32,000 nucleotides of DNA, from assembly GCF_000237865.1 (NCBI RefSeq), contig NC_017459.1:660001-692000 (forward strand). The letters are read 5' to 3'. This DNA comes from Haloquadratum walsbyi C23 (GTDB taxonomy: Archaea > Halobacteriota > Halobacteria > Halobacteriales > Haloferacaceae). The position numbers and the translations under genes are program-made. Shown piece by piece: positions 308 through 31,243 of the stretch. Each line of letters starts with the position of its first letter. The first letter of the stretch is position 1. Under the pieces are notes generated by a model. The model saw nothing but the letters and a program-made list of their open reading frames with translations, was not told the origin of the DNA and made no database searches.

Positions 308-1282
308 ATGAAAGCAACTGCACGTGCCCACCCAATACAGGGACTGATTAAATATCATGGAATGCGAGACAGTGACAAACGCTATCCCTACCATGACAGT
401 ATTAGTGTTTGTACAGCACCAAGTGCAACAACAACGACTGTTGAATTCCAATCTGATGCTTCTGGGGACGTGTATATAATAGATAACGAACGTGTTGAGG
501 GGCGAGCAGCAGAACGGATTGATGCTGTTGTAGAGCATGTCCGTGAGCGAACTGGAATTCGGGACCCCGTCCGATTGGTCTCAACAAATTCATTTCCCTC
601 AAATATTGGGTTTGGGTCCTCTTCATCCGGATTTGCCGCGGCAGCAATGGCACTTGTGACCGCTGCTGGAGAAGAACTTACGCATCCAGAAATTTCAACA
701 ATCGCTCGGCGAGGATCATCGTCTGCTGCCCGTGCCGTGACCGGCGCATTTTCACAATTATACTCTGGAATGAACGATACCGATTGTCATGCTGAACGGA
801 TTGAGACCGATCTTGATGCGACCGTTCGAACGGTTGCAGCGCACGTTCCTGCATATAAAGAAACGGAGGAGGCACATCGTGAGGCCGCACAGAGTCATAT
901 GTTTGATGCGCGTTTAGCACACGTCCATCATCAAATTGATGCGATGCGTGATGCACTGTATGATGCTGATTTCGATCGGATATTCGAATTGGCTGAGCAT
1001 GACTCGCTATCATTGACAGCAGCAACGATGACTGGTCCTGCTGGCTGGGTCTATTGGCAGCCACAAACGATTGCAGTGTTCAATACTGTCCGCGAACTCC
1101 GTGAGCGTGAGTCAATCCCGGTTTATTTCTCAACTGACACCGGTGCGAGTGTCTATGTGAATACAACCGCCGCACACGTAGATACTGTTGAATCTGCAAT
1201 TTCCGATATTGGTATTGATACCGATATCTGGACTGTCGGTGGACCAGCAACGGTGCTCTCTGCAAGTGATTCGTTATTTTAA
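308..1282 (+). CDS. mvaD: GHMP-kinase-fold mevalonate-pathway decarboxylase (diphosphomevalonate decarboxylase family; in haloarchaea this family acts as phosphomevalonate decarboxylase)
   Basis: 324-aa ORF. The N-terminus (ARAHPIQGLIKYHGMRD) and the GFGSSSSGFAA phosphate-binding loop are typical of MVD/PMD. Composition is acidic. Confidence 0.85.
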   Translation: MKATARAHPIQGLIKYHGMRDSDKRYPYHDSISVCTAPSATTTTVEFQSDASGDVYIIDNERVEGRAAERIDAVVEHVRERTGIRDPVRLVSTNSFPSNIGFGSSSSGFAAAAMALVTAAGEELTHPEISTIARRGSSSAARAVTGAFSQLYSGMNDTDCHAERIETDLDATVRTVAAHVPAYKETEEAHREAAQSHMFDARLAHVHHQIDAMRDALYDADFDRIFELAEHDSLSLTAATMTGPAGWVYWQPQTIAVFNTVRELRERESIPVYFSTDTGASVYVNTTAAHVDTVESAISDIGIDTDIWTVGGPATVLSASDSLF

Positions 1283-5453: not shown

Positions 5454-6377
5454 ATGGTAACGAAAAATAGTGTTGTTGAAACACACGATGTAGAGTCACT
5501 CAAAGAATCAGATAATATCAGTCTCACCGATAGTAAACTGGATAATGGGTCAAAGGGACAGCTAATCAAAGTCGCCGGTCAACTCCGTGATCGGCGAAAC
5601 GATCTTAATCAAATGGCCTCAGAACGGGCTTCACTACGCGATGAACTAAATGCGAAAACGCGTGAGAAGGTTGATGAAGCTCAGAAACATCGTGAAAAGC
5701 GCGATGAACTGAATGAACAGGTTCAAGAGCACAAGGACAAGCGAAATGAACTCAATGCAGAAGCCAATGAGTTGTTCGACCAAGTCGAGGAAATGAAAGC
5801 TGAACTTGAACTTGATGAGGGAAAAAATATTGAGGAGCTTGAAGATGAGATTGAGCAACTTGAGTTCCGCCAACAGACTGAGGTCCTTTCTTCGGAAGAT
5901 GAGCGTGAACTTATCGAAAAGATCGAAGACAAACGCGAGCAACTTCAGCAGAAAAAACAGAAAGTCGAAGATAGTGGTGAACTTGACTCACTGAAAGAAC
6001 AAGCGGAGGAAGTCCGCTCAGAAGCTTCTCAGCATCACCAGAAAGTCACCGAGCTCGCTGATAACGCACAAGAACATCATAATCAAATGATTGAGGCGTA
6101 TCGCGAGGCTGATGATATTCGCGATGAAGCTGATGCTATGCACGAGCTTTTTGTTGAGGCACAAGAGACAGCTGATGAACATCATGAGGACTTTGTTCGC
6201 GTGCAAAAGCGCCTTCGTGAACTCGATAAACAAGAAGAGCAAGAACGAGAGGATGAACGCACCGAGGAGCGCGAGGCTGCAAAAGAAGAAGCTGAAGAAA
6301 TCTATCAGAAGTTCAAAGAAGGCGAAACCCTCGATACCGAAGACCTGATGAAACTCCAAAAAACAGGTCTACTCTAA
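5454..6377 (+). CDS. Archaeal coiled-coil protein (COG1340-like), function unknown
   Basis: 307-aa ORF, extremely rich in E/K/D/Q/L with heptad-like repeats throughout. No catalytic motifs were seen. Confidence 0.75.
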   Translation: MVTKNSVVETHDVESLKESDNISLTDSKLDNGSKGQLIKVAGQLRDRRNDLNQMASERASLRDELNAKTREKVDEAQKHREKRDELNEQVQEHKDKRNELNAEANELFDQVEEMKAELELDEGKNIEELEDEIEQLEFRQQTEVLSSEDERELIEKIEDKREQLQQKKQKVEDSGELDSLKEQAEEVRSEASQHHQKVTELADNAQEHHNQMIEAYREADDIRDEADAMHELFVEAQETADEHHEDFVRVQKRLRELDKQEEQEREDERTEEREAAKEEAEEIYQKFKEGETLDTEDLMKLQKTGLL

Positions 6378-6725
6378 AGAACACAGCGAGAGTTCCGCGG
6401 GTCACCCAACCCGTAGTGCGTTATAAATGACGAACTCAAAAGAAATACCCTATCTGTCGGTGCTTCTGAAGTAGACCGATCGCATGGTATATACTGACCA
6501 ACCCCGACCAGAAGAGTTGGGCTCTTCTCCCTGCTCCGCCTATAGAGGTTGATTTTGGATTTATCACTAACCAGGCGACAAGACACTCTTCTTCAGGGAG
6601 CCGCCACGGGCAGCGAGTAAACAGGGTAGTTCACGAGTCTTTATTTTCCTACTATTCATATATAATTCAGATTACGGTCATATTTTGAGGAAAGATAGAT
6701 ACGATGGTACAATAATAACGTACAC

Positions 6726-8529: not shown

Positions 8530-8960
8530 TTCCGTCTCTTCGATATCCTCGTTAATCACTTCCTCCGACACCGCACCTGTCGTTCCCACGGAGTATCCAA
8601 TCTTCTAGAATCCGCCACCACAGAAACAGGACTCTCGAATCTTGGGATCCTATTCCAGTAGGTGCTTGCCGGAGGCCGACCTGAACTGCCGATCAATATC
8701 CGCTGGACTGTGCTTCGAGCCAGTTTGCATAAACAAGTGCACGTGGTCGTCTTGGTCTGTCGTCTCCAACGCCAGAATTTTCTGTCCAAAGTGGTCGGCA
8801 GTCTCACTAAACGACTCCCTCACATTCATATTTCCTTCCAGTACGTCAAGAACCGGATGTCGATACTTAGGACATCATATTAAACTCGATAGTAGCGAAT
8901 CGAATTACCAGACTCACAAAACCCAGCCACATTCGGTTGGTGCGTCTGTCTGGGTCGGGG
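8530..8960 (-). pseudogene. tnpA: IS200-type tnpA (Y1/HUH transposase), multiply frameshifted
   Basis: On the minus strand, ..VIRFATIEFNMMS* shifts frame to CPKYRHPVLDVLEGNMNVRESFSETADHFGQKILALETTDQDDHVHLFMQTGSKHSPADIDRQFRSASGKHLLE*, then to further shifted pieces ..LWWRIL.. and ..IGYSVGTTGAVSEEVINEDIEE. These match the TnpA pattern Y.L.YH...PKYR....DHVHL....LKG.S...LWS.SY....G.VS.E.V..YIE.Q. The pseudogene has at least 3 frame breaks. Confidence 0.6.
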
Positions 8961-9335
8961 CACGTAAGCCGCCCACCCTCATCCGACTCGCTTGCCAAGC
9001 AAGGACTGCTAGTGCACGGCTGAGAGAACCAACAAAAGTCTCGGGTCACCGCGCCCGAGGTTGTTTACCTGCTCAAAATCGGGATTCCTGCAGAATACAT
9101 ATACATAACATCAAAAGAAAAGCTATGCCTGTCAGCATACTGGGCACAGATCGTATATTTTGATATTCAAGATACGTTCAAGCGCACGGACGAGTGATAC
9201 CTGCATCTATACCGATATCGAAGTTGGAGCTATGGTGTCAAGCGGGTCCAAACGCGCCCTGCGAGCGCAATTTATATTTCATCTGCGATAGAATCCTTGC
9301 TGTTTGCCGAGCACGACATATGGCGGATGAAGATA

Positions 9336-11942: not shown

Positions 11943-13310
11943 TCAATATTTCCGCGTTGCGCCAGTAAGATCATAGAATTCGTCCATTAGTTCATCACGA
12001 TTCGCCTGCCAATCTTTGAACGCTGACGGTGAGTCTGGATACGCATCATAAACCTGAGTAATTTCCGTTGCACGGCGGCTCACTTTGTATAGTTCATACA
12101 GTGCATCCCAATGACCGAAAGTATCGATAAGCGTCTTTAATTTTAATTTGAGACTCATACTTGATGTTCCCTTACTAAGTGCATCAGCAAGTTGTTGACC
12201 GGGAACAGCAGAGACAATCTCAACAAGTTCATCGACATTATGCGCAGTTCCCCAGAGATTATACAGATCGATCGCCGCGAAACGCTTTCCAAAGCTTGTC
12301 ATTACATCAGTATTGTATTCCCACAGCCGCGATTCGGAGACGTCTCCCTCGCTAATTGCATCGACAGCGTGCAATGCTGCCCAATGTGCAGATTTCGCGG
12401 CACCTGGAATCCCACCGCCAGTTGTTGGGTTCACATGTCCGGCAGCATCACCGACTGCGAGAAACCCGTCAGCGACCGCAGAGTCATATGGGCGTCGTGT
12501 CGGAAGCGAGGCACCGAGTTTATCTTTGACAGTTGCATTTTTCAATTCTGGTCGTGTCATAATATCCTGTTTAAGTGTCTCAACAAGTTGCATCGGATCT
12601 TCTGTCATCTGAAACCCTAATCCAACATTAATCTCTGTTGCTGTTCGGGGAAAGTACCAGAGATACCCTAACTCGTCTGTTGGTTTGAACACAATCGCAT
12701 CATCATATTCAACCGGATCCGGAACCTCAAGCACTTCTCTATATGCTGAGCAGAACTGTGAGTATGAAACATTCGTATCAAAATATGTCTCAGTAAAATC
12801 GGTTTTATCTTGGAGAATTGAGAGTGCGCCAGCAGCGTCAATAGTAATCTCTGCGTTATATGTATGTACTGTTCCATTCCGCGTTGCACGGACTCCAGTG
12901 ACAGTTCCATCATCATCCTGACAGACATCCTGCACAACAGTATCATATTGAATTTCCGCACCACTCCGTTCAGCCTCTTCAATTAGTATCTCTCCATATC
13001 GTTTTCGATCAAGAACAGCTCCGTGATCAGCGAAGTCAATATCAACGCTTCCTCCACGAGGGTTCTCAAATACAGCCCGCTGGATTCGTTGGTTGGTGAA
13101 TGATTCTGATTTGAGGTATTTTCGATCAATGACATCTGGGAATGTGCTCGTTCCTTTAATCGCATCACCGCACGCGATATGACCTGCTTCATCCGCAGAT
13201 TTTCGCTCAAGTATAATAGCGTCAAGCCCTTCCGACGCTGCCGTCGCCGCAGCGAATGTCCCTGCGGTCCCCCCGCCAACGACGACAATATCGTAGGCTT
13301 CAGTTGACAT
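11943..13310 (-). CDS. Geranylgeranyl reductase family flavoprotein (digeranylgeranylglycerophospholipid reductase-like)
   Basis: 455-aa ORF. It has an N-terminal FAD fold (YDIVVVGGGTAGTFAA..LERK), then HIACGDAI, then VGDAAGHVNPTTGGGI, which is typical of archaeal GGR. Confidence 0.85.
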   Translation of the reverse strand: MSTEAYDIVVVGGGTAGTFAAATAASEGLDAIILERKSADEAGHIACGDAIKGTSTFPDVIDRKYLKSESFTNQRIQRAVFENPRGGSVDIDFADHGAVLDRKRYGEILIEEAERSGAEIQYDTVVQDVCQDDDGTVTGVRATRNGTVHTYNAEITIDAAGALSILQDKTDFTETYFDTNVSYSQFCSAYREVLEVPDPVEYDDAIVFKPTDELGYLWYFPRTATEINVGLGFQMTEDPMQLVETLKQDIMTRPELKNATVKDKLGASLPTRRPYDSAVADGFLAVGDAAGHVNPTTGGGIPGAAKSAHWAALHAVDAISEGDVSESRLWEYNTDVMTSFGKRFAAIDLYNLWGTAHNVDELVEIVSAVPGQQLADALSKGTSSMSLKLKLKTLIDTFGHWDALYELYKVSRRATEITQVYDAYPDSPSAFKDWQANRDELMDEFYDLTGATRKY

Positions 13311-19598: not shown

Positions 19599-21998
19599 TT
19601 AATCGCTTGTTGTTGGATCATTTGTTGATGGCGTATCAGTGTCTGTGTGCTGGTTGATATCCGTGTCAATTGGATTTGATTCTGGCGGTGACCCAAGGAT
19701 GGGAGCCACAGTTAACACCGCAGGAAGCACCGTAAACGCAGTCAAAAGGGCAAACGAAATCGCAAGAACGGTTGTTCGTCCAAAGTTTGCGAGGACTGGG
19801 AACCGTGAGATCATCAATACACCGAAGCCAAATATTGTTGTAAAGCTGGACCCGATAATTGGACGCGATAGCTTCGCAACAGCAGTTGCAGCAGCTCCAC
19901 GCTGTGTTTGACCCTGTGTTTCGACCTCATACTCAAATCGCTCGAAGAGATGGATCCCATAATCAACACCAATCCCGAGAGTCAGTGATGACATCGTTAT
20001 CGTCAATGGATTCCATGGAATCCCGAACACATACATCGCTCCTGTTACGAGCACAGCAGCGCTTGCAGCGACACTTAGAACAAGCGCAGCAGCAATTCGT
20101 ATCGAGAGGAACGCAAACGCAAGGAATGACAACCCAAGCCCAAAGGAAAGAAGTGTCATCGGTGTGAGACCAGCGGTTACGTTCTCAATGACATTTCGAT
20201 TTAACACTGGCTTACCTGTAATCCGAACATCCTCAGCAGTCGTTAATGATAATGCTGCATTAGTTTCAAAGGCAGTGATGAGTGAACGGACACTTTCGCC
20301 CTCAATATCGTCGACATAAAATGAGAGCACGATCGTCGATGGTGTCTCATCCGGATCTCGCACATCGGTCATCCCATCGGTGTTGTGCAGACGCTCAATC
20401 GTCTGGGTCAGCCCTGTCTGCGTTTGCGGGATTGATCCATCTGTTGCCATTTGAACACTTGTCACGGGTGATTGGACTGCATTCACCTGCTCATTCGCAA
20501 TCATAAGTCGTTGATATGTGGCAATATCACGGAACGTTTCTGGGGTATATGCCTGATCTGTATCGATCATGACATACACTACCTTCGGACTTTCAACTGT
20601 TTCAGAGAGTTCCTCCATATCATTCTTCTCAGCGAGGTCCTGCGGCCAGAAGTCCATCATCTCCTGTTTTGGCTCGACTTGCGGATATGCATAGACACCA
20701 CCAGAAACGAGCAAGATCGCAATTCCAAGCGTAATAAGTGGATGCCCACCAGTAACGCTCGACGTAAATCGATGGAGAACTGCTTGAAGCCAATCGTCAC
20801 TCGACTTACTGGTCGTTTCGGTCGCCACATGTCCATCACGGTCAAACCGGACAAGCAGTGCTGGAAGCATTGTGACCGCGAGAATCATTGCTGCAAGCAC
20901 AGCAACAGCACTCGTTACACCAAATTGCCGGACTGGTGGGACCGCTGAGACAAGAAGTGATCCTAATCCAACTACAGTTGTCCCCATTGCAATCAGTAAC
21001 GCTCGACCGGTCGTTCGTGTTGCGATCCCGATTGCATCAAGCGAGTTGTTACCTGCTCGCCTTTCCTCAACATATCGTGAGTGAATCTGGAGACTATAGT
21101 CAATCCCTAATCCAAGTGCAATTGGCATCACACCGAGCATGATTGCATTGAAATCATATCCCAAGATGCCCATTGCCCCCATCATATACAGTAATGCAGT
21201 CATTGCTGTTCCAAGTGGGAGTATGACATGCCACCCTTTCTCGACAGTCTCACGCATCACAAGATATACCACAATGAAGATGAGCGAAAATGCGCCTCCA
21301 AAGAGCGCAATCATCTCTGGAAGCATCAGTCCAAACGCTGCGTTTTCGAAGACAGGTTGCCCCGTAATTGTCGTTGACATCCCTGGCGGCATCGCTGCAA
21401 ACGCCGTCTCTGATTTGACTGATGAATATACGACATCAGCACCACGCTCAGGTAAAAATGCCCCGCGGTCGTATCGATCGACATCGCCGTAACTTGCGAG
21501 GATGATTGTCGTCCCTGCCTCCGGTGTAAGTCGATTAACCATCTCGTCAGCTACTGGTCCACGCTGTTCAACTCGTGCAATGGCACTCCGAACGCCCGCT
21601 TTTGTTTCAGGTATTTCACCATCAGCGCCTCGCCTGACAATATCTGCGAGTGAAGTAACGCTCTCTATTGAGTCGACATTCGATCCATACTGCTGGTCAA
21701 GTCTATCAATTGCCCGAATTGTCTCAGGATCATACAACTGATCTGATTCGACAATAACGAAAATATTGTTTCCTGTATTGTATGTATCCTTTAGTGACTC
21801 CCAATTATTGGCTGTTTGAGAGTCATCATTGATGTACAGGGTCATCCCCATACTCATTTGTACAGCACTGAATCCAACACCAAGTGATATGATTGCAGTA
21901 ACAGCAACAACAGCGAATACCTGCCGCTGATTACTAGCAGCATACCGTCCTGTCGCTTCAAGTCCATCACGGACCCGTTCACCAAATCGTGTTGTCAT
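19599..21998 (-). CDS. RND-superfamily transporter, HAE3/MMPL-like (12 TM, two large extracytoplasmic loops)
   Basis: 799-aa ORF. Its two homologous halves each have TM1, a ~170-aa loop and then 5 TM helices. It carries GLGIDYSLQIHSRYVEE and GIGVDYGIHLFERFEYE motifs. The start lies 5 nt after the upstream gene's stop. Confidence 0.85.
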   Translation of the reverse strand: MTTRFGERVRDGLEATGRYAASNQRQVFAVVAVTAIISLGVGFSAVQMSMGMTLYINDDSQTANNWESLKDTYNTGNNIFVIVESDQLYDPETIRAIDRLDQQYGSNVDSIESVTSLADIVRRGADGEIPETKAGVRSAIARVEQRGPVADEMVNRLTPEAGTTIILASYGDVDRYDRGAFLPERGADVVYSSVKSETAFAAMPPGMSTTITGQPVFENAAFGLMLPEMIALFGGAFSLIFIVVYLVMRETVEKGWHVILPLGTAMTALLYMMGAMGILGYDFNAIMLGVMPIALGLGIDYSLQIHSRYVEERRAGNNSLDAIGIATRTTGRALLIAMGTTVVGLGSLLVSAVPPVRQFGVTSAVAVLAAMILAVTMLPALLVRFDRDGHVATETTSKSSDDWLQAVLHRFTSSVTGGHPLITLGIAILLVSGGVYAYPQVEPKQEMMDFWPQDLAEKNDMEELSETVESPKVVYVMIDTDQAYTPETFRDIATYQRLMIANEQVNAVQSPVTSVQMATDGSIPQTQTGLTQTIERLHNTDGMTDVRDPDETPSTIVLSFYVDDIEGESVRSLITAFETNAALSLTTAEDVRITGKPVLNRNVIENVTAGLTPMTLLSFGLGLSFLAFAFLSIRIAAALVLSVAASAAVLVTGAMYVFGIPWNPLTITMSSLTLGIGVDYGIHLFERFEYEVETQGQTQRGAAATAVAKLSRPIIGSSFTTIFGFGVLMISRFPVLANFGRTTVLAISFALLTAFTVLPAVLTVAPILGSPPESNPIDTDINQHTDTDTPSTNDPTTSD

Positions 21999-22003
21999 TG
22001 CGG

Positions 22004-23659
22004 TTATCGAAGGCGTGAGAACGGTTTCGTTTGATATACAACACCGGCAACAAGTGCAATCGGAATAACGACGCCCGCAATGACGATACCTGGAACTGGT
22101 AGCCCTCCGTCACTAGCGGTAATCGTGATTGGTGCCGACTGAATGTCACTCACGACTGTTTCGCCGAATGCATTGTCATATTTGATACTTGTATCAAGTG
22201 AATATGTCTTTGCTGCGGCAGACCCATCAGCACTGACTGTATAACTCACGGTTGTTGTTTCACCAGGCTTGAGCATCCCAATATACGTTGTGTCATCATC
22301 AGTTTCAAATGGTGAATTGGCATTGACACGGACAACGGCATCTCGGAATTCCCCTTCACCAGTGTTTTTAATCGTGAATCGGAGTGTTTCCGTTTGTCCG
22401 GCTGTTACTGCTGCGGTGTTTGTGACCGCGAAAGATTTCTCAGGACCAACAGGCACATCAACCGATAGTGGATCACTCGTTACATCATTTCCATATGTGT
22501 CATCATGAATGATACGAACTGTCAGTGGATACTCTTGTGGAATCGCACGATCTGACACCTCAAGTTTAAATCTCGCAGTCGCTGATTCACCGGGATTGAG
22601 TGTTCCAAGACTCGCGCTTGTTGATACAAGGGCAAACGGTTCAATTGGACTCAATTTCGCTCGTGCATTCGGTGCTGTTCGTTCACCTGTATTTGTCACT
22701 GTCACAGCCACAGAACCAATCGAATCGACATACATCGCCCTTGCTTCAGTCGAGAGTTTATACTGTGGTCCATTTGAGACCGCTACACTGCCAGTTCGGG
22801 TGAGCGACTGCTCTGGATTTCCATTTTCATCTTCATATCGTAACTGAAAATTCACACCATACGCCCCGGCAGCATCAACATTTTCTACACCAACTTGGAA
22901 TTCTGCCGTCGCCGTCTCATCAGGCTTTAATTCACCAACCGAGACGGCGTTACTCTTTGGATTAAAGTACTCTGATTGCACAATCGAGAGTTCGGCATTT
23001 TGGGCGATCTCACTTCCTGTATTCTGTACTCTCACAGTCATTGTCCCGTCAGCGTCTTTGTACAGGTCCGCCCCCGTGACATCACGCACGCCAAGTCGGA
23101 CAGATTTCTCAACACGGACAGTAATGTGCTCTTTCACCGTCTGTGTATTCCGATTAATGAAATAGTCATTTTTGTCAACATTAATACTATTTATATAGCC
23201 ATATGTAATCTTGACTGGGAGTTGATACACTCCAGGTTGTGCATGTTGGTCCACCTCGATTGTTAGTCCCATCTTTCGGGCATCACCAGCAGCGATCGTT
23301 CCCAGACTTTGTTGTGCTGTTCGAATGTCAAGCGGTGTGTCACCAGCATCAACACTGGCTGTGACCGCTGTTGCAGATCCGACTTGGATCCGATGCGTTT
23401 GAACAACTTGTGCAATATCACCGATTTGACGATCCATACTGGTGATGCCAGTATGCCGGTTCTGTATCAACAGATCGAAGCTCTTCATTTCACCCGCTGC
23501 GACGACATTCTGTTGCTGAATTGTCGGTGTAAGCTCCGGTTCGGAAAAGTCATTATATTGCTCGGCTGCGACACCACCCGACCCGGCGGCGAACGCAGCT
23601 ACAACCATGATTGTGATCAATAAAATTGCCCGCCATTTTTTCCCTAGATAATATTGCAT
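22004..23659 (-). CDS. Membrane-anchored cell-surface protein with tandem beta-sandwich (COG1361/CARDB/DUF11-like) repeats
   Basis: I prefer the start at Met24 of the 574-aa ORF (MQYYLGKKWRAILLITIMVVAAFAAG, a signal/anchor sequence); the ORF-track start is 23728. There are three to four ~100-aa repeats with recurring ..V.NTG.. and ..Y.L...I.Y.. strands. A C-terminal TM helix is followed by a basic tail (VIAGVVIPIALVAGVVYQTKPFSRLR). Confidence 0.7.
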   Translation of the reverse strand: MQYYLGKKWRAILLITIMVVAAFAAGSGGVAAEQYNDFSEPELTPTIQQQNVVAAGEMKSFDLLIQNRHTGITSMDRQIGDIAQVVQTHRIQVGSATAVTASVDAGDTPLDIRTAQQSLGTIAAGDARKMGLTIEVDQHAQPGVYQLPVKITYGYINSINVDKNDYFINRNTQTVKEHITVRVEKSVRLGVRDVTGADLYKDADGTMTVRVQNTGSEIAQNAELSIVQSEYFNPKSNAVSVGELKPDETATAEFQVGVENVDAAGAYGVNFQLRYEDENGNPEQSLTRTGSVAVSNGPQYKLSTEARAMYVDSIGSVAVTVTNTGERTAPNARAKLSPIEPFALVSTSASLGTLNPGESATARFKLEVSDRAIPQEYPLTVRIIHDDTYGNDVTSDPLSVDVPVGPEKSFAVTNTAAVTAGQTETLRFTIKNTGEGEFRDAVVRVNANSPFETDDDTTYIGMLKPGETTTVSYTVSADGSAAAKTYSLDTSIKYDNAFGETVVSDIQSAPITITASDGGLPVPGIVIAGVVIPIALVAGVVYQTKPFSRLR

Positions 23660-23776
23660 TGTATACACATTATTACACACGTCAAGGTTAATAGCTATCG
23701 CTGTTGTTCGCGGGTAATGCACAGACACGAGAATAAAATAAGCTGGCTGCCCTCGCGTTTCGCCCGATATTGCTTC

Positions 23777-24040
23777 TTAAATCGCGAGCGTATACAATCG
23801 CTTTCGTGCGTCTGTAAATGAGATCCGCGCTTCAATAACGTCTGCATCCTCAAGTCGCGATAATGCGTAACGAACTGTTCGCGGTGGTAATAGCGTCTCT
23901 TCAGCCAGCTGACTTTGTGTCAGCTGCTCGTTATAGTCAAGCACCTTTGCAACCAACTTCGCACTCGGGGGCATCTCACGAACGGGATCCCAACGGTCAC
24001 TTGATGTTTCCTCACCCGCGAGTGCCTCTGTTGTACTCAT
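23777..24040 (-). CDS. Small winged-helix (MarR/ArsR-like) DNA-binding protein
   Basis: 87-aa ORF. The motif ..SAKLVAKVLDYNEQLTQSQLAEETLLPPRTVRYALSRLEDADVIEAR....DARKRLYTL is the common haloarchaeal single-domain wHTH pattern. Confidence 0.75.
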   Translation of the reverse strand: MSTTEALAGEETSSDRWDPVREMPPSAKLVAKVLDYNEQLTQSQLAEETLLPPRTVRYALSRLEDADVIEARISFTDARKRLYTLAI

Positions 24041-24120
24041 CGTATGCTTGATTAAACATGTAGAGTGATAATATTTACTGTATCAATATATTACTAGGAA
24101 AAATTATTTCACCGATAATA

Positions 24121-26586
24121 TTATTTATCAATCCACAATTGCCGACGGATATCAGTCCATCCAATTAGTGCAGCAGGAAGCACAAATATCGATGCAATAA
24201 ACGAATAGAGCACGCTGAGGGCAATCAATAACCCGAACTGACCGAGGATTGGGGTTATTGCAAGTATAAGCACACCAGTTCCAGAGGTTGTTGTCAGCAT
24301 GCTTCCGGCGAGCGCACCACCGGTTCCTCTCACACTTACGCTCAGTGCTTCAAATCGATCAACTTCCCCACGATACTCCTCTGTGAATCGATGAACAAGG
24401 TGAGCAGAGTAATCAATTCCCAGCCCAATTCCGACCGAGAGTGTCGTCCCAGTCAGAACATTGAACGGGATATCAAGATATCGCATTGTACTCGCCAGCC
24501 CTGCAATCGTCAATAGAACCGGTAATATGTTTGCAATCCCCAATCCTGGTCGGTTTTCAAGCAGCCAATAGATTGCCACAAGAAATACTGCGGCTGTGAG
24601 TACAGCAATGACAAGGCTCGTATATGCGGATTCTGCAATTACATCTGAAACTGCTTTCCGTACGACAACACTCCCTGTTGCGGTTGACTCCATCCGTATT
24701 TCGGTAGCGAGTTGACGCGTATCGGCTGTAATTGCAGCCTGTGACTTCTCAGCTTTTACTGAATAGATAAGACGGGTAGCGGTATAATCATCAGTAAGAT
24801 ATAATCGTGCTTGATCACCATAGGATGACGCAAATAACTGATCATAGACGATACCAAGATCGTGGTCTGGAATCCCATTCCCATTCTGATCCTTGGCGGA
24901 GATAAGACGGCGAAATGACGCTGACTCTCGTTCATATTGATCAATAACGGTGAGAATGCTCTGCGGTTGCGATTCCCGTTCTGCTGTTACAAACGAGTCA
25001 GGTGGATCCTGATTTGTTTTATGAAGGATCTCAAGTGTTGACCCTTGTCGCATCGATCCCTCAACATACACTGTCACTGTATCATCCTCACTGCTTTCGA
25101 ACGTATTCTCAAGATAATTTGTCGTTTTAGTCACAGTGTACTCACCAGGCGCAAACGGCTCTGGTAGTTCTTCAAGATATCCCGGCGTTTCCTCTGGTGG
25201 AAGAAAGTCGTCTGTCGTAAATCGTGTTTCAACCCCTGTGCCATATCCGCCGAGTGCTGCTGTTAATATCAGTATTGCTAAAAGAAAAATATACGGACTC
25301 CGTCTTGCAATAACGACGCCAACCCCAAGCACCCGACCACCAACTGATCCTGCTCTTCCGATTGGTGTTGTTCCGAATGATGGAATGGAATATTCTACTC
25401 GTTTTCGGTCGAGGAGATGTTTGAATGCTGGAAGGAATATTCCGAAAATAAGAAGCGTGAAGATAATTCCAACAGCAGCAACCAGACCAAACTCGCGAAC
25501 GGGAGCAAGATCACTTACACCATTCGCTGCAAATCCAAGTACTGTTGTCCCAGTGACGATACTAAACGCAGGAAGTAACTGATCCGTCGTTGTCCGCATT
25601 GATGATGAGATGTCTTCACCAGTCACTCGTTCTTCGCGATATCGATTTACCGCATGGATTCCAAAATCAATCCCAACAGCCAGCAGAAGTGGTGGAATTG
25701 CAATAAGTATCTGTGTGAACTCAATTCGTGCCCAACCCATGAACCCAAATGTCCATGCTATCGTCATTGCAAGAGACACTAATCCAATGATCAAATCAAT
25801 CGGGTCACGATACGCGATAATCAAGAATATAAAGATAAGAATGACTGCCGCTGGAACGACGATTATCAATGAGTCAGTTATTACGCCCCCTAACTCCCCA
25901 GAAATGATTCCACTTCCAAAGACGGTAATATCACCACCAGTTGACCCAACAATGAATGTTGCCTCACGTTGCAGTGATGTCAACGGTGACCCACTCTGCG
26001 TCCCAGCGTCATCACTTGTTCCTGCAACCTGATGCGTGATGGTTGCGATTGTCGCTGATGCAGATGGGTCGCGCTCGTTTAGATCGTCACTGAGACGTGA
26101 CCTAACGCTTGGTTGTGTCCGCACAATCGTCCGTGTAACGGTTCGGACGCCTGACTGTGGTGTTCGCTCAACTGCATCAATCTGTGCTGAAAGTGTTGTT
26201 GCTGTTGGGTCAATTTCTGTTGCGATCGTCTGTGCGACACTATTTGTACTGACGACGTTCTGTGAGGTATCACGCTGTATCCGATGCTGCGCCCGTAACA
26301 TCGCAAGTACTGCTGATTTTGTGAGAACATTTCGATCTCGCTGAATCAACGTTGTTGTGCCTGTTCCGGTTCCAAACGGCTCACGCTCGAAGTTATCATT
26401 GACATCCTCAAATGCCTCTTGTGCTGGAACACCCTCACTAAACTGTGAGGTGCCTGAGTCCGTTGCTGTCATTCCAAATCCAACAGCAAGCACGGCAGTA
26501 ATAAGAATAAAAATGAGAATGACTGTTTTATCTCGATTAATAATCCACTCATCAACCTGGTCAATAAGTGACTGATAATCAATCAT
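24121..26586 (-). CDS. RND-superfamily transporter, HAE3/MMPL-like (paralogue of 19599-21998)
   Basis: 821-aa ORF with the same two-halves topology. Its motifs are GIDFGIHAVNRYREE and GLGIDYSAHLVHRFTEE. Confidence 0.85.
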   Translation of the reverse strand: MIDYQSLIDQVDEWIINRDKTVILIFILITAVLAVGFGMTATDSGTSQFSEGVPAQEAFEDVNDNFEREPFGTGTGTTTLIQRDRNVLTKSAVLAMLRAQHRIQRDTSQNVVSTNSVAQTIATEIDPTATTLSAQIDAVERTPQSGVRTVTRTIVRTQPSVRSRLSDDLNERDPSASATIATITHQVAGTSDDAGTQSGSPLTSLQREATFIVGSTGGDITVFGSGIISGELGGVITDSLIIVVPAAVILIFIFLIIAYRDPIDLIIGLVSLAMTIAWTFGFMGWARIEFTQILIAIPPLLLAVGIDFGIHAVNRYREERVTGEDISSSMRTTTDQLLPAFSIVTGTTVLGFAANGVSDLAPVREFGLVAAVGIIFTLLIFGIFLPAFKHLLDRKRVEYSIPSFGTTPIGRAGSVGGRVLGVGVVIARRSPYIFLLAILILTAALGGYGTGVETRFTTDDFLPPEETPGYLEELPEPFAPGEYTVTKTTNYLENTFESSEDDTVTVYVEGSMRQGSTLEILHKTNQDPPDSFVTAERESQPQSILTVIDQYERESASFRRLISAKDQNGNGIPDHDLGIVYDQLFASSYGDQARLYLTDDYTATRLIYSVKAEKSQAAITADTRQLATEIRMESTATGSVVVRKAVSDVIAESAYTSLVIAVLTAAVFLVAIYWLLENRPGLGIANILPVLLTIAGLASTMRYLDIPFNVLTGTTLSVGIGLGIDYSAHLVHRFTEEYRGEVDRFEALSVSVRGTGGALAGSMLTTTSGTGVLILAITPILGQFGLLIALSVLYSFIASIFVLPAALIGWTDIRRQLWIDK

Positions 26587-26711
26587 TCAACTGATTCCAT
26601 CGATCCTGCATTCGGACTCGATTTGTGTATACACTTTTTCGATCGTTGTATCCGTCCCTATTTCTCCGCTCGCTTTGCAGTGATGAGTGAAAGAGACGAT
26701 ACACTACTGAA

Positions 26712-28358
26712 TCACCCTCGACGATACCACACAGCACTGCCAATGATGATAATCAAAATACTCCCACCAATAATCGGCGCTGACAATGGCAATGATAATC
26801 CACCCTGATCTGCTGGCTGTTGAATATTGACTGGTACCTTGTATGTTTTCGAAATCTTTGTTTCTCCGCTTGGGAGATCATACTGAAAATCAACCGCAAA
26901 TGGATATGTCTTCGATTCAAGAGCACCACTATCAGCACTCAATGGCATCACAATTGTCGTTGTTTCACCTGAGTCAAGTGCAGCAATAAATGCCTCATCA
27001 TTACTGCTTGCCAATGGTGCATCTAAGAACGCTTTCGCTTCAATACTCTCAAGCGGTTGCTCACCATTATTAGTCACTTGTAATTTAAATTCTGTCTGTC
27101 CCCCGGCAGTGACCGTTTCCTCGGTCGCTTGAATAATAAACCGATCACGCTGTTCACGCACCGCTGCTGTTGCTTGTAGCATATCACTTGTTCGACGACT
27201 CCCACGTTCTGTATTATACTGGACAGTCAGTGAAAATTGCTGAGGGGTTGCTGTTGCTGCCTCACTTATATCAATATCATACTGCACTTGCGCTGTTTCA
27301 CCTGGGCGGAGTGTCGAAAGCGCATATTCGCTGGTCGTAATATCAATATTCTGATTATTGACTGAGATAATTGACACTGGATTAAATACTGGCTGTGGAC
27401 CGGTGTTTTCAATTATCGCTGTCAATGTTCCTTCAGTTCCAACCCGGAGTGCTGTATCAACTGAATTAACCGCGAACGTTTGCTCTGGTATTGTGGCAAC
27501 ACCAGCACTGAGCGCTGTTGATGTCTGCTCAATCCCGTTTCGATCGGTATATCCAACATCAAGATCAAGCGTGTAATTTCGTAGTGCGGCGGTGTCAGCA
27601 ATGTGCGCTCGATAGGTTATTGTTCGTCGTTCGCCCGGCTCCCATTCCTGTCCAGCGTATGCAGTTGATGATTCAGAATCGCTTCCAAAGGTAAGTTCGT
27701 CACTTTTCGATGTTGCTGTGACACTTGCATCGAAAGCTGTGCGACTCCCGGTGTTCATTAAAGTAAGCCTAATTGTTCGGTCATCACCAATTTGCCCGAC
27801 TGCGTTTTGCCCGGTCACTTTGAATTGCGCCTCTTCACGAACGGTGATCTCAACACTTGTTGACGCTCGCTCAGTAAAATCATTATATTCGACATTCTCT
27901 GTGTTGTATGAAGCTATCCGTGTGTATGCGTACTCATACTCAAGCGGTATCTCGTAGTCCCCTGGAGGAATCCCCTCTGGAATTGTCACTGTAATTGGCG
28001 GTGTCTGAGTCGTTCCTGTCTCCACATTCCCAACAGAAATTGTTCCAGTATCAATTTCAATCGGCGTTTTTTCATCTGCAAATTCAACTGTAAGTGCTCG
28101 CGCGGTAGTCACACGCGTCTCATATTCATCCGGTCCCCCTTTGTCAATCCGTCCGCGATTAGTCAGTGTAAATTGCACCTCCGCCTCCGTTCCAGCACTC
28201 ACCGTCTGCTGAACAGAACTTACCGAAATACTTGGACGACCAAGGACCTGTCCTGTCGGGTCAATTTGTGCAAGGGCAATTGCCGGTCCAACTGCTGAGA
28301 TGAGTATAAGACCAACAAGAAGCCCCACAATGAATGACCGATTCATACATCTAATCAT
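26712..28358 (-). CDS. Membrane-anchored cell-surface protein with four beta-sandwich (COG1361/CARDB/DUF11-like) repeats (paralogue of 22004-23659)
   Basis: 548-aa ORF with an N-terminal signal/anchor (FIVGLLVGLILISAVGPAIALAQ). It has four repeats (..FTLTNRG.., ..LTLMNTGS.., ..AIIENTGP.., ..LQVTNNGE..). A C-terminal TM helix is followed by WYRRG. Confidence 0.7.
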   Translation of the reverse strand: MIRCMNRSFIVGLLVGLILISAVGPAIALAQIDPTGQVLGRPSISVSSVQQTVSAGTEAEVQFTLTNRGRIDKGGPDEYETRVTTARALTVEFADEKTPIEIDTGTISVGNVETGTTQTPPITVTIPEGIPPGDYEIPLEYEYAYTRIASYNTENVEYNDFTERASTSVEITVREEAQFKVTGQNAVGQIGDDRTIRLTLMNTGSRTAFDASVTATSKSDELTFGSDSESSTAYAGQEWEPGERRTITYRAHIADTAALRNYTLDLDVGYTDRNGIEQTSTALSAGVATIPEQTFAVNSVDTALRVGTEGTLTAIIENTGPQPVFNPVSIISVNNQNIDITTSEYALSTLRPGETAQVQYDIDISEAATATPQQFSLTVQYNTERGSRRTSDMLQATAAVREQRDRFIIQATEETVTAGGQTEFKLQVTNNGEQPLESIEAKAFLDAPLASSNDEAFIAALDSGETTTIVMPLSADSGALESKTYPFAVDFQYDLPSGETKISKTYKVPVNIQQPADQGGLSLPLSAPIIGGSILIIIIGSAVWYRRG

Positions 28359-28701: not shown

Positions 28702-29919
28702 ATGAGTGATACTGTGAACGACGTCGACCTCCCGTATGATGAGGAGACGGCGTCGCAGCAGGAAAAGATTCAGGCGCTTCGTGAGCGTCTCGACATCCTC
28801 GAGTCACAAAATGAGGAGATGCGAGATAAACTGCTGGACGCGAATGCAGAGAATAATAAATATCAACAGAAACTCGAACGGTTGACACATGAAAATAAGA
28901 AACTCAAGCAATCGCCGTTATTTGTTGCAACGGTACAAGAAATAACGAATAACGGCATTGTAATCAAACAACACGGCAATAATCAGGAGGCTCTTACCGA
29001 GGTCACTGACGAGATGCGAACGGAATTAGAGCCAGATACACGTGTTGCGGTCAACAATTCGCTTTCTGTCGTGAAACGGCTTGATGATGAGACTGATGTC
29101 CGTGCACGAGTGATGCAGGTCGAACATAGTCCGTCTATCAGATATGATGATATCGGTGGACTGGAAACACAAATGCAAGAAGTACGCGAAACCGTCGAGA
29201 TGCCACTAAAATCGCCAGAAATGTTCGAGACGGTTGGTATTCAGCCACCATCTGGTGTTCTTTTGTATGGACCACCAGGAACTGGGAAAACCATGCTCGC
29301 GAAAGCTGTTGCCAACCAGACGGATGCCAGTTTCATCAAAATGGCTGGTTCAGAGTTAGTTCATAAATTCATTGGTGAGGGAGCAAAACTTGTTCGTGAT
29401 CTCTTTGAGGTCGCCCGTGAGAATGAACCAGCAGTTATTTTTATTGATGAGATTGATGCGATTGCCTCAAAGCGAACAGATTCAAAGACATCTGGAGATG
29501 CCGAGGTTCAGCGAACAATGATGCAGTTACTTTCAGAAATGGATGGGTTTGATGAACGGGGCGATGTTCGTATTATTGCAGCGACGAACAGATTTGATAT
29601 GCTCGATGAAGCGATTCTCCGCCCAGGTCGATTTGACCGATTGATTGAGGTTCCAAAGCCTGGAATTGAGGGTCGGAAGATCATCTTCCAGATTCATACC
29701 CGTGAGATGAATGTTTCCGATAACGTTGAGTTTGAGCAGTTGGCGGAGATGGCTGATGATGCTTCTGGAGCGGATATCAAGGCAATCTGCACGGAAGCCG
29801 GAATGTTCGCTATTCGTGAGGATCGAACGGAGATTGGAATGGGTGACTTCATTGAAGCATGGGAGAAAATCCAATCCGAATCGAATGCTGATGGCGATAC
29901 GGCACGTGCGTTCGCATAG
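28702..29919 (+). CDS. pan: Proteasome-activating nucleotidase (AAA+ ATPase)
   Basis: 405-aa ORF with an N-terminal coiled coil, an OB domain, Walker A (GPPGTGKT), Walker B (IIFIDEID), a second region of homology, and a C-terminal hydrophobic-Tyr-X-like tail (..RAFA). It closely resembles haloarchaeal PanA as I remember it. Confidence 0.95.
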   Translation: MSDTVNDVDLPYDEETASQQEKIQALRERLDILESQNEEMRDKLLDANAENNKYQQKLERLTHENKKLKQSPLFVATVQEITNNGIVIKQHGNNQEALTEVTDEMRTELEPDTRVAVNNSLSVVKRLDDETDVRARVMQVEHSPSIRYDDIGGLETQMQEVRETVEMPLKSPEMFETVGIQPPSGVLLYGPPGTGKTMLAKAVANQTDASFIKMAGSELVHKFIGEGAKLVRDLFEVARENEPAVIFIDEIDAIASKRTDSKTSGDAEVQRTMMQLLSEMDGFDERGDVRIIAATNRFDMLDEAILRPGRFDRLIEVPKPGIEGRKIIFQIHTREMNVSDNVEFEQLAEMADDASGADIKAICTEAGMFAIREDRTEIGMGDFIEAWEKIQSESNADGDTARAFA

Positions 29920-29984: not shown

Positions 29985-30671
29985 ATGGGAAAACCGCGTA
30001 CTGATCGTACACAGCAAGTGGATACCGTTCTACGTCGGCTTGCAGAGAGATATCCAGATTCAACAATCTCACTTCAGTTTTCAAATCGACTCGAACTTCT
30101 GATTGCTGTTGTTCTTTCAGCACAGTGTACTGACGAACGAGTTAACAGCATTACCGCTGATCTGTTTGAAAAGTACGAAACAGCAACTGATTATGCCGCT
30201 GCCGACACTGATGAGCTTGCTGAAGACATCTATGGAATTACGTTTCACAATAACAAAGCAGGTTATCTCAAATCAATTGGTGAGACACTTGCTTCGGATT
30301 ATGATGGTGACGTGCCTGATACAATGGATGAACTCACTGCCCTCTCAGGTGTTGGACGGAAAACGGCAAATGTGGTCTTACAGCATGGACATGATGTTGT
30401 TGAGGGCATCGTTGTTGATACACACGTGCAGCGGATAACCCGCCGACTTGGACTCACAGACGAACAAACACCGAAACAGATTGAGACCGACCTTATGGAA
30501 TCTGTCCCGGAGTCCGAATGGCAGCAATTCACACATCTATTTATTAGTCATGGACGAGAAACTTGTACAGCACAAAACCCTGACTGTACAGACTGTATTC
30601 TTGAAAGTGTCTGTCCATCCTCAAAATGTGATCATGATATTGATCTTGCCTCAAATACACCATGGAAATAA
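29985..30671 (+). CDS. nth: Endonuclease III (DNA glycosylase/AP lyase)
   Basis: 228-aa ORF with the HhH-GPD motif (LSGVGRKTANVVL), a catalytic Lys/Asp context, and the C-terminal 4Fe-4S ligand pattern C-x6-C-x2-C-x5-C (CTAQNPDCTDCILESVC). Confidence 0.95.
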   Translation: MGKPRTDRTQQVDTVLRRLAERYPDSTISLQFSNRLELLIAVVLSAQCTDERVNSITADLFEKYETATDYAAADTDELAEDIYGITFHNNKAGYLKSIGETLASDYDGDVPDTMDELTALSGVGRKTANVVLQHGHDVVEGIVVDTHVQRITRRLGLTDEQTPKQIETDLMESVPESEWQQFTHLFISHGRETCTAQNPDCTDCILESVCPSSKCDHDIDLASNTPWK

Positions 30672-30763: not shown

Positions 30764-31243
30764 TTAGAGCACATATTTTGTCATATATAAATAAAGTCCA
30801 AGTGACCATGCGAGAAACCACAATCCAACATAGCCGAAGACACCGACCCGAAGCCGTCCACGCCAAGCACTCATGTTCGGGTGGAGATCATTTAGCTCGG
30901 TTTGTTGATCGGGATCATCATAGAATCCAGCGTTTCGCTTGACTTGGAGAATACGGACAATTCCGGTGAGTGCAAAGGCTAATAGCGCATATGCTTGAAG
31001 ACCTAATACTGCATGAAGTGCCACAGCACCACCTAACTGCTGGAGTAGACGCGGAATCATCCACGTTACAACAGGAATTGTATTAAGTATAAGACCTGGA
31101 ATAATAAACTTCAGATGATATGTGAGGACACCCCAGGTGACGGTCTCGGCATCTATCATAATCCATGCACCATATAAATAAAATGGAAGGCTTGCAGTGA
31201 CCATCGATGCAGCGATAAGTGCGATGGTCGACTCTGATAGCAT
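30764..31243 (-). CDS. Hypothetical integral membrane protein (about 4 TM helices)
   Basis: 159-aa ORF with four hydrophobic segments and conserved-looking His residues within helices (YHLKFIIPG, LHAVLG). No family was recognised. Confidence 0.55.
   Translation of the reverse strand: MLSESTIALIAASMVTASLPFYLYGAWIMIDAETVTWGVLTYHLKFIIPGLILNTIPVVTWMIPRLLQQLGGAVALHAVLGLQAYALLAFALTGIVRILQVKRNAGFYDDPDQQTELNDLHPNMSAWRGRLRVGVFGYVGLWFLAWSLGLYLYMTKYVL

Follow-up and report, generated by a model that had tools for sequence, protein, structure and literature searches.

What are two tandem pairs of genes, each coding for a surface protein and a membrane transporter, doing in the chromosome of Haloquadratum walsbyi, and do they form one functional unit with the small regulator-like gene that lies between them? 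The question is raised by positions 19599-28358 of a 32,000-nucleotide (nt) stretch of the H. walsbyi C23 chromosome, the whole of which was analysed and will be called the window. In the studied region five genes follow one another on the minus strand, all co-directional according to a check of the open reading frames (ORFs): Surf-A, RND-A, a gene for an 87-amino-acid (aa) winged helix-turn-helix protein (wHTH), Surf-B and RND-B, with spacers of 125, 80, 117 and 5 nt. All five ORFs lie where a preliminary description of the sequence had placed them, and by exact look-up their products are CCC39581-CCC39585; the orthologues in strain HBSQ001 are CAJ51667, CAJ51668 (source name HQ_1540A), CAJ51670 and CAJ51671. 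Modules A (Surf-A and RND-A) and B (Surf-B and RND-B) are two-gene units, probably for export, which diverged long ago and belong to the haloarchaeal 'RND permease + RND-T-associated protein' type.

The pairing of partner and RND gene is strongly conserved within halophilic archaea. In a scan of genomes with the RND gene as the anchor, 73 loci were recovered, and their RND proteins fall into three clades. In the clade of RND-B orthologues (at least 56% identical) the partner is encoded directly upstream in 34/34 loci, including one (L030) that is partly masked by Ns and still encodes the two membrane-proximal domains of the partner, D3-D4. The gap between the two genes is -4 to +6 nt in 33 of these 34 loci and 32 nt in the remaining one. 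The sister clade, about 48% identical to RND-B, has the partner in 12 of 13 loci at gaps of 58-84 nt, and the third clade (41-45% identical, including Nanohaloarchaea) has it in none of 18 assessable loci. Because a whole RND clade is thus devoid of it, the partner appears to be an accessory of some pumps only. When the search was anchored on the partner and directed at metagenomes, an RND-B-type gene was next downstream in all 22 loci with enough downstream DNA. The metagenome pairs from the second scan were all of the Surf-B/RND-B type, 57-99% identical to RND-B; a first metagenome scan, with the low-GC partner homologue P0455 as the query, found nothing. Pairs of the A type also have the partner upstream, at gaps of 27 nt on Har. 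marismortui pNG700, 4 nt on Hbt. salinarum pHS3 and -1 nt on Hfx. volcanii pHV4.

The genome scan returned Halobacteria, Nanohaloarchaea, one probably misbinned contig and nothing else. This contig (CAYNQG010000002.1, our locus L054) is binned as 'Candidatus Saccharibacteria', yet its RND protein is 42% identical to haloarchaeal RND-B and it has low-GC, K-rich neighbours. It is probably nanohaloarchaeal or from another halophile, and not the carrier of a bacterial homologue.

The counts bear out the proposal of the preliminary description that the pairing itself is the conserved unit. Its view that the two modules are old paralogues and not the outcome of a recent duplication agrees with the identities between them, 24% for the RND proteins and 27% for the partners. 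The translational coupling it proposed for Surf-B and RND-B is compatible with the 5-nt gap and with the equally short distances in the orthologous loci.

The partner and RND pairing has already been published. In PMC11349517 (Front Microbiol 2024), HVO_A0467 of Hfx. volcanii is described as the protein most induced by iron starvation (44-fold), and as sharing an operon with HVO_A0466; the latter is glycosylated and secreted, and AlphaFold models it as a fibre of four immunoglobulin (Ig) folds with a C-terminal transmembrane (TM) anchor. The two homologues are reported to be adjacent 'with very few exceptions' in 21 genomes of 18 genera, with H. walsbyi scoring 3/3 partners and 3/3 adjacent RNDs, and the phylogenies of the two proteins are said to correspond. 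The same text names the partner 'RND-T-associated protein', suggests an interaction in the pseudo-periplasm and, from docking only, the export of the siderophore schizokinen. The opinion of the preliminary description that no archaeal member or partner had been characterised is therefore outdated, since this paper holds a survey, an Ig model, the induction and a deletion mutant; the pair is described there, but its function is assigned only tentatively. A search of the functional literature on HAE3 in archaea, COG1361, COG1033 and the HQ locus tags found nothing beyond this paper.

Module A belongs, as judged by sequence identity, to the HVO_A0466/HVO_A0467 subfamily. Over the full length, the identity of RND-A is 43.8% with HVO_A0467, and it rises to 66.6% with the homologue on Har. 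marismortui pNG700 and to 57.7% with that on Hbt. salinarum pHS3; each of these three RND genes has a COG1361 gene directly upstream. Between Surf-A and HVO_A0466 the identity is 37.7% over 438 aa (E = 5e-92), and with the pHS3 homologue it is 45%; the corresponding value for Surf-B and HVO_A0466 is 27.3% over 432 aa (E = 7e-36).

Both transporters are RND superfamily members of the MMPL family (PF03176). With a Pfam cut-off of 20.5 bits, RND-B scores 152.3 and RND-A 117.5 bits, in two matched stretches each, and Patched/SSD matches occur in the same scan; the 799- and 821-aa proteins are hence placed inside RND, as the preliminary description expected of profile searches. The best NCBIfam model for both is TIGR00921 (HAE3), which RND-B matches with 331.0 bits (E = 1.2e-98) over model positions 4-732 of 733 and RND-A, a clear outlier, with 190.3 bits. 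Because neither score reaches the curated cut-off of 351.9 bits, 'HAE3-like' is, at the level of profile scores, the accurate label for the two proteins, and in this form the earlier family assignment stands.

The layout of the transporters, according to a hydropathy scan and the AF2 model of RND-B (pLDDT 79; AF2 models cover RND-B and Surf-B), begins with TM1 and a loop of about 180 aa; TM2-6 and TM7 follow, and a second loop, of about 175 aa, separates them from TM8-12. In a fold comparison with the PDB the RND-B model is most similar to MmpL4/MmpL5 (TM-scores 0.69-0.79), followed by MmpL3, NCR1/NPC1 and HpnN. The 12-TM fold with two porter domains is recovered against 9syj, 9dp6, 9b46, 6ajf and 5khn, with TM-scores of 0.65-0.79 and E values of 1e-19 to 1e-25. 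The motif G(I/V)D(Y/F)..H...R..EE is present in TM4 and TM10 of both RND proteins, so that the 12-TM topology, the two large extracytoplasmic loops and the motif of the preliminary description are all upheld. Across 41 sequences D300 in TM4 of RND-B and H683, R687 and E691 in TM10 never vary, and the conservation of Y301 in TM4 and of D679 and Y680 in TM10 is at least 90%. The TM4 motif of RND-B aligns with 'GTDY' of MmpL4 and 'GVDF' of HpnN, the TM10 motif with 'GSDY' of MmpL4, and the TM4 motif of RND-A is probably homologous to the D-Y/F dyad in TM4 of MmpL4 and HpnN. Both proteins therefore carry Asp-Tyr or Asp-Phe dyads of the proton-relay type in TM4 and TM10, and proton coupling is a prediction from sequence.

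The partners are built on a common plan. Both match NEW3/CARDB repeats in Pfam, in agreement with the 'COG1361' family call made earlier. The AF2 model of Surf-B (pLDDT 84.4) consists of a signal-peptide helix, four beta-sandwich domains (D1-D4), a short linker, a C-terminal TM helix and a basic tail. In Surf-A a Sec-type signal peptide precedes the Ig-like NEW3/CARDB repeats, and the C-terminal TM helix is followed by the tail WYRRG; Surf-A is 27% identical to Surf-B over residues 89-523, a range that spans all four domains; its four-Ig plan with a TM anchor is thus likely, on the strength of this alignment and of hydropathy. The plan that had been described for the two proteins (signal, beta-sandwich repeats, C-terminal TM helix, basic tail) stands, with the correction that the Surf-B model has four repeats and not three to four. 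The two proteins agree with the 'RND-T-associated protein' family in their homology to HVO_A0466, in the RND gene next downstream and in the four-Ig fibre with a C-terminal TM anchor. As to the starts, NCBI begins Surf-A four codons later, at 28346 (544 aa, named COG1361 S-layer family protein), and the Surf-B ORF stays open up to a GTG at 23728, the ATG at 23659 being the one that precedes a typical Sec signal peptide.

The variability of the partner is unevenly distributed. Surf-B orthologues are 37-84% identical across Haloferacaceae and Haloarculaceae, and among 30 orthologues the conservation is 58-59% in D3-D4, 43-48% in D1-D2 and 22% in the TM helix. The partners also diverge faster than the pumps, the mean identity in the B clade being 47% versus 66%. 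We propose that D3-D4 may be the region that contacts the periplasmic domains of the RND protein. The partner family has 938 representatives at E <= 1e-30. The best 147 of them (P0403-P0549) are all acidic (pI 4.05-5.48), and in 133 there is a C-terminal anchor, behind which a W/Y-W-R-R tail is typical. The shortest has 494 aa and the longest 1541 aa, and the profile matches them in up to 8 stretches. From this spread in length it follows that the number of Ig repeats varies, in these 147 from 4 to at least 8. Most of the 147 end in a hydrophobic helix and an aromatic-basic tail, e.g. WWWRRR.

Several searches for a more specific relationship of the partner were negative. Foldseek with Surf-B against the PDB gave generic Ig arrays only (HYDIN, integrin alpha, alpha-2-macroglobulin), with no S-layer protein and no MmpS among the 50 matches listed; the sequence search of the PDB gave no match, and the Pfam scan had no match to MmpS (PF05423) at E <= 0.01. 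Archaeosortase (ArtA) processing is not indicated either, as NCBIfam/TIGRFAM gave no match at E <= 0.01 to PGF-CTERM or any other -CTERM sorting signal and the PGF motif is absent from the C-termini ...LPVPGIVIAGVV... and ...LSAPIIGGSIL.... The only match with -CTERM in its name is that of Surf-B residues 116-376 to NF033506, a whole-protein model of PACE-CTERM S-layer proteins, at 39 bits against a cut-off of 110 and with the C-terminus uncovered. Generic fold likeness was dropped as a criterion of family membership, as the distant CARDB/NEW3 matches P0148 and P0161 do not adjoin RND genes.

What could such a module do? We think it fairly probable that it is a two-component exporter of an amphiphile, comparable to MmpS/MmpL, in which the partner is the accessory subunit. 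Under this hypothesis one transcript would yield the two products of a module at a constant ratio, in module B by translational coupling, and these would form a complex in which D3-D4 lie against the porter domains and D1-D2 reach into the space under the S-layer. The RND protein would take up an amphiphile or a lipid from the membrane or its cytoplasmic face and push it outward, the dyads in TM4 and TM10 coupling this transport to the proton-motive force. The stalk might stabilise the pump or relay the substrate towards the S-layer, functionally as MmpS may do with MmpL4/5, and the substrates of modules A and B probably differ.

A number of observations weigh against this hypothesis and need to be discussed. 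Firstly, MmpS and the partner are alike only in their role: the two sequences show no similarity, the partner is four times longer, and its topology is opposite, with a signal peptide and the anchor at the C-terminal end. Secondly, the poor conservation of its TM helix argues against a specific interface within the membrane. Thirdly, the pairwise distances of partner and RND protein are correlated (r = 0.80 overall, Mantel p = 0.001; r = 0.71-0.97 within types), but correlated divergence and adjacency are expected for any co-inherited pair of genes in an operon and are no proof of contact. In addition, there is a deep conflict between the partner and RND trees: the sister-clade RND proteins (L031-L070) are 48% identical to RND-B and 20% to RND-A, whereas their partners are 31% identical to Surf-A and only 26% to Surf-B. 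This pattern in the sequences suggests an exchange of partners between pump lineages, a loose interaction, or very uneven rates. The 125-nt gap makes co-transcription less certain in module A; the spacer between Surf-A and RND-A, 124 nt in J07HQW1, is unusually long, since the A-type pairs of Haloferax, Halobacterium, Haloarcula and Halorientalis have spacers of -1 to 27 nt. Finally, according to PMC11349517, HVO_A0467 could be deleted with no clear phenotype and no growth defect under iron limitation.

A bolder form of the exporter hypothesis would see the Ig-stalk as an obligate subunit of an export conduit across the archaeal pseudo-periplasm, a counterpart of the tripartite and MmpS-MmpL systems, in which stalk length is tuned to the width of the envelope, partners are exchangeable, and a lipid or amphiphile (an S-layer lipid anchor, a glycolipid, a carotenoid or a siderophore) is delivered to or through the S-layer. 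We regard this as speculative and rather doubtful. To our knowledge, no envelope-spanning export machine of this kind has been demonstrated in Archaea, and we know of no archaeal HAE3/MMPL-type RND transporter with a proven substrate. The movement of lipids, siderophores and amphiphiles to the archaeal S-layer is little understood, and the pair of pump and stalk offers an entry point that is genetically tractable in Haloferax volcanii. To what PMC11349517 reports, the present analysis adds that two of the three H. walsbyi modules stand around a highly conserved but unrelated wHTH gene, that conservation within the partner is highest in D3-D4, that there is an RND clade without partner, and that the partner and pump trees are in deep conflict.

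Alternatively, the partner could be an independent surface protein, i.e. an adhesin, an S-layer accessory or a receptor, or it could be the cargo; its tie to the RND protein would then consist in co-regulation or in a lipid or modification that the pump supplies, and no stable complex would form. The Ig array is indeed generic and common to many surface proteins, distant CARDB/NEW3 homologues occur without an RND neighbour, and NCBI labels the protein 'S-layer family'. The variation of the distal domains, of the number of domains and of length among the best 147 representatives is what one expects of exposed surface proteins, and the tree conflict points in the same direction. On the other hand, the strict gene order and near-zero spacing in 33/34 B-type loci and the reciprocal adjacency in 22/22 would be unusual for mere co-regulation, and the highest conservation is found in the membrane-proximal domains, not at the exposed tip. 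The cargo variant has the additional difficulty that an RND pump cannot move a folded 55-kDa protein and that the partner has a Sec signal peptide of its own. On balance we find this alternative unlikely.

According to another alternative, module A at least exports a hydroxamate siderophore such as schizokinen, and the stalk aids its release beyond the S-layer. This idea draws on the homology of RND-A and Surf-A to the Hfx. volcanii pair together with the 44-fold induction of HVO_A0467 on iron starvation in PMC11349517, and on MmpL4 and MmpL5, the nearest solved relatives both by sequence and by fold; these mycobacterial proteins export siderophores and need MmpS. But the assignment in PMC11349517 comes from docking alone, and the deletion mutant grew normally under iron limitation. 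RND-A is closer to the pNG700 and pHS3 homologues than to HVO_A0467, which makes strict orthology with the latter uncertain, and no siderophore-biosynthesis genes were seen near either module in the window, or near the pairs on pHV4, pNG700 and pHS3. Module B has no link to iron. A role in siderophore export is thus distinctly unlikely.

It remains to discuss the wHTH gene, which the preliminary description regarded as the local regulator and, with the two modules, as part of one unit. Orthologues 75-89% identical to it occur in Halobellus, Halopelagius, Halogeometricum and Halorubrum; in the same genera RND-B is 65-74% and Surf-B 47-57% identical, i.e. both are less conserved than the wHTH. 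In Halobellus and Halorubrum the gene is close to a gene for a 405-aa PAN-like AAA ATPase on the opposite strand, which is directly adjacent and divergent in Halorubrum and two genes away in Halobellus. It lies there upstream of a DUF7966 gene, a Metallophos gene and a gene for a protein of about 897 aa, the last two of which might encode Mre11 and Rad50; endonuclease III and DUF7321 genes are found near it in Halobellus. No RND genes were seen around the wHTH gene in Halobellus and Halorubrum, and no wHTH homologue was found within 10 kb of RND-B orthologues outside Haloquadratum, so that the co-occurrence with the module expected of a dedicated MarR-type regulator is confined to Haloquadratum.

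Because the wHTH is more conserved than RND-B and Surf-B, and syntenic elsewhere without RND genes, it is, on comparative evidence, an unrelated conserved neighbour and not a regulator of the modules. The genes for the PAN-like protein, endonuclease III and DUF7321 stand just beyond module A, which is why we place the modules in a pre-existing synteny block; the simplest reading is that module A lies between the PAN-like gene and the wHTH gene, and module B past the latter, inside this older block. The tandem arrangement of two modules is specific to the Haloquadratum lineage, and H. walsbyi J07HQW2 has the genes for the wHTH, Surf-B and RND-B but no module A at this position. That the five genes form one regulon, with the wHTH as the dedicated regulator of two substrate-specific modules, is very improbable: the wHTH gene is co-directional, 117 nt upstream of Surf-B and beside module B also in J07HQW2, where module A is missing, and MarR-type regulators control mmpS-mmpL operons in mycobacteria, but its conservation, its synteny and its absence from other RND-B loci contradict such a role, and the candidate operator GTGTATAC is not conserved.

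Two side observations can be made on the wHTH loci. In H. walsbyi the operon of DUF7966, Metallophos and the gene for the protein of about 897 aa, downstream of the wHTH elsewhere, is replaced by Surf-B/RND-B, and loci with the wHTH (L074-L077) are found across Haloferacales genera. Its setting hints at a housekeeping or DNA-repair-related role of this NP_1176A-family protein; the family is represented in Hfx. volcanii by HVO_0772 and HVO_0422.

Operon limits were inferred from gene spacing. Three H. walsbyi strains share a TATA-like 'GCTATTAA' some 30 nt ahead of the ATG of Surf-B, and this may be a promoter element. In the 125-nt gap between Surf-A and RND-A (26587-26711) no significant RNA fold was found (z = -1.0). 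The candidate operator GTGTATAC and palindrome GTGTATACAC, at 23661-23668 and 26625-26634, were dropped as a probable chance occurrence: there are 3 matches against 0.66 expected, and 3 matches were reached in 2/100 shuffles. The copy in the gap of module A is not conserved in J07HQW1, and the copy at Surf-B is only partly conserved in other Haloquadratum.

Other regulator genes are found beside pumps of this family. TetR/AcrR genes flank A-type pairs in three independent contexts: HVO_A0465 (7066-7698 of L083), which is divergent from the HVO_A0466/A0467 pair on pHV4, genes on both sides of the pair on Har. marismortui pNG700 (5943-6542 and 11639-12235 of L081), and one on a metagenome contig (614-1219 of L079). 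Such a position is typical for efflux pumps, and the ligand of these regulators could reveal the substrate. The available part of PMC11349517 contains no mention of TetR. In the partner-less RND clade, loci L044-L071 often have an ArsR/TrmB-type wHTH gene of 109-130 aa on the same strand, 280-560 nt upstream (e.g. 9381-9710 of L048, 9219-9611 of L053 and 5915-6304 of L064), and this protein may be the dedicated regulator of that clade.

Table 1. Positions in the window of the genes, motifs and domains of modules A and B and of the intervening gene
Feature	Position	Strand	Basis
Surf-A, partner of module A	26712-28358	-	ORF, 548 aa; Pfam NEW3/CARDB/DUF11
RND-A, MMPL/HAE3-like RND permease	24121-26586	-	ORF, 821 aa; Pfam MMPL, TIGR00921
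RND-A TM4 motif AVGIDF, residues 303-308, putative proton-relay Asp307 (D307/F308)	25663-25680	-	motif scan
RND-A TM10 motif GLGIDY, residues 721-726, putative proton-relay pair Asp725/Tyr726	24409-24426	-	motif scan
wHTH, NP_1176A family (MarR_2/HTH_24)	23777-24040	-	ORF, 87 aa; Pfam
Surf-B, partner of module B	22004-23659	-	ORF, 551 aa from ATG; Pfam NEW3 x3, CARDB x3
Surf-B parts: signal peptide 5-24; D1 33-184; D2 189-295; D3 300-405; D4 410-514; TM 524-543; tail YQTKPFSRLR			
Surf-B D3-D4, membrane-proximal Ig-like pair	22118-22762	-	per-domain conservation
RND-B, MMPL/HAE3-like RND permease	19599-21998	-	ORF, 799 aa; start 5 nt past Surf-B stop
RND-B TM4 motif GLGIDY, residues 296-301, Asp300/Tyr301	21096-21113	-	motif scan, alignment
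RND-B TM10 motif GIGVDY, residues 675-680, Asp679/Tyr680	19959-19976	-	motif scan, alignment

The neighbours of the modules in the window are genes for an acetyl-CoA synthetase, the PAN-like ATPase and endonuclease III; beyond Surf-A come the PAN-like gene (28702-29919), endonuclease III (29985-30671) and DUF7321 (30764-31243). Two genes that point to isoprenoid lipids lie 6-18 kb away from the modules, one for a diphosphomevalonate-decarboxylase-like protein (308-1282, plus strand) and one for a geranylgeranyl-reductase-like flavoprotein (11943-13310, minus strand). The neighbourhood of the wHTH in Halobellus contains a gene for a 453-aa FAD_binding_3 protein that is homologous to isoprenoid-lipid gene(s) of the window. 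Because this gene belongs to the conserved Halobellus neighbourhood, the closeness of the isoprenoid-lipid genes to the pumps probably reflects synteny and no functional link. Elsewhere in the window, the Rfam small RNA family sot2652 (a haloarchaeal sense overlapping transcript) matches positions 8904-9086 on the plus strand with 127 bits, against a gathering score of 61; the match falls inside a 173-aa ORF with a TTG start (8642-9163) that has no Pfam match.

It is useful to compare the general features of the two modules with those of known systems. The broadest relationship is that to HAE3 (TCDB 2.A.6.7, TIGR00921), which provides the best NCBIfam model and the label that JGI gives to members of the cluster; HAE3, however, is a sequence family that comes with no defined function or partner. 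HpnN and MmpL3, which export hopanoids and trehalose monomycolate, respectively, are lipid-export pumps driven by proton-motive force. They share with the archaeal proteins the 12 TM helices and two porter domains, and their sequence and fold matches are significant. Yet RND-B is only 14-17% identical to them in structural alignments, the scores with the equivalog hidden Markov models are far under the cut-offs (TIGR03480 128 versus 752; NF052608 22 versus 1400), the C-terminal cytoplasmic domain of MmpL3 is absent here, and both HpnN and MmpL3 are without a dedicated Ig-stalk partner.

The closest relative with regard to the whole module is the HVO_A0466/HVO_A0467 pair of PMC11349517. In both cases the partner gene is directly upstream of the RND gene, the pump is a 12-TM protein of the MMPL type, and in the partner the signal peptide is followed by four Ig folds, the C-terminal TM helix and a tail of the YWRRK type. 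The differences concern the context. The H. walsbyi copies are chromosomal, and two of them stand in tandem around the unrelated wHTH gene; the Hfx. volcanii genes overlap by 1 nt as opposed to the 125-nt gap in module A; the TetR gene HVO_A0465 lies beside the Hfx. volcanii pair, and no TetR gene is adjacent in H. walsbyi. Module B is in another subfamily, at identities of about 24-27%.

With respect to presumed role, the nearest analogy is with MmpS4/MmpL4 and MmpS5/MmpL5, siderophore and drug exporters of mycobacteria (9syj, 8zkp, 9mvz). MmpS is a single-domain protein of about 140 aa with an N-terminal anchor, as opposed to the haloarchaeal partner of about 550 aa with four domains, a cleavable signal peptide and a C-terminal anchor. 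Since both loops are only about 175-180 aa long, the archaeal RND proteins are without the periplasmic coiled-coil insertion of MmpL4/5. The mycobacterial envelope has an outer mycomembrane, whereas that of H. walsbyi is an S-layer. These systems give the best fold and PDB sequence matches to RND-B and have the same Asp-Tyr dyads in TM4 and TM10. The organisation of the mycobacterial genes is also reminiscent of what we see here: MmpS is a membrane-anchored beta-sandwich accessory that is encoded directly upstream of MmpL in one operon with it and only for a subset of the pumps, and regulators of the MarR and TetR types are found near mmpS-mmpL genes.

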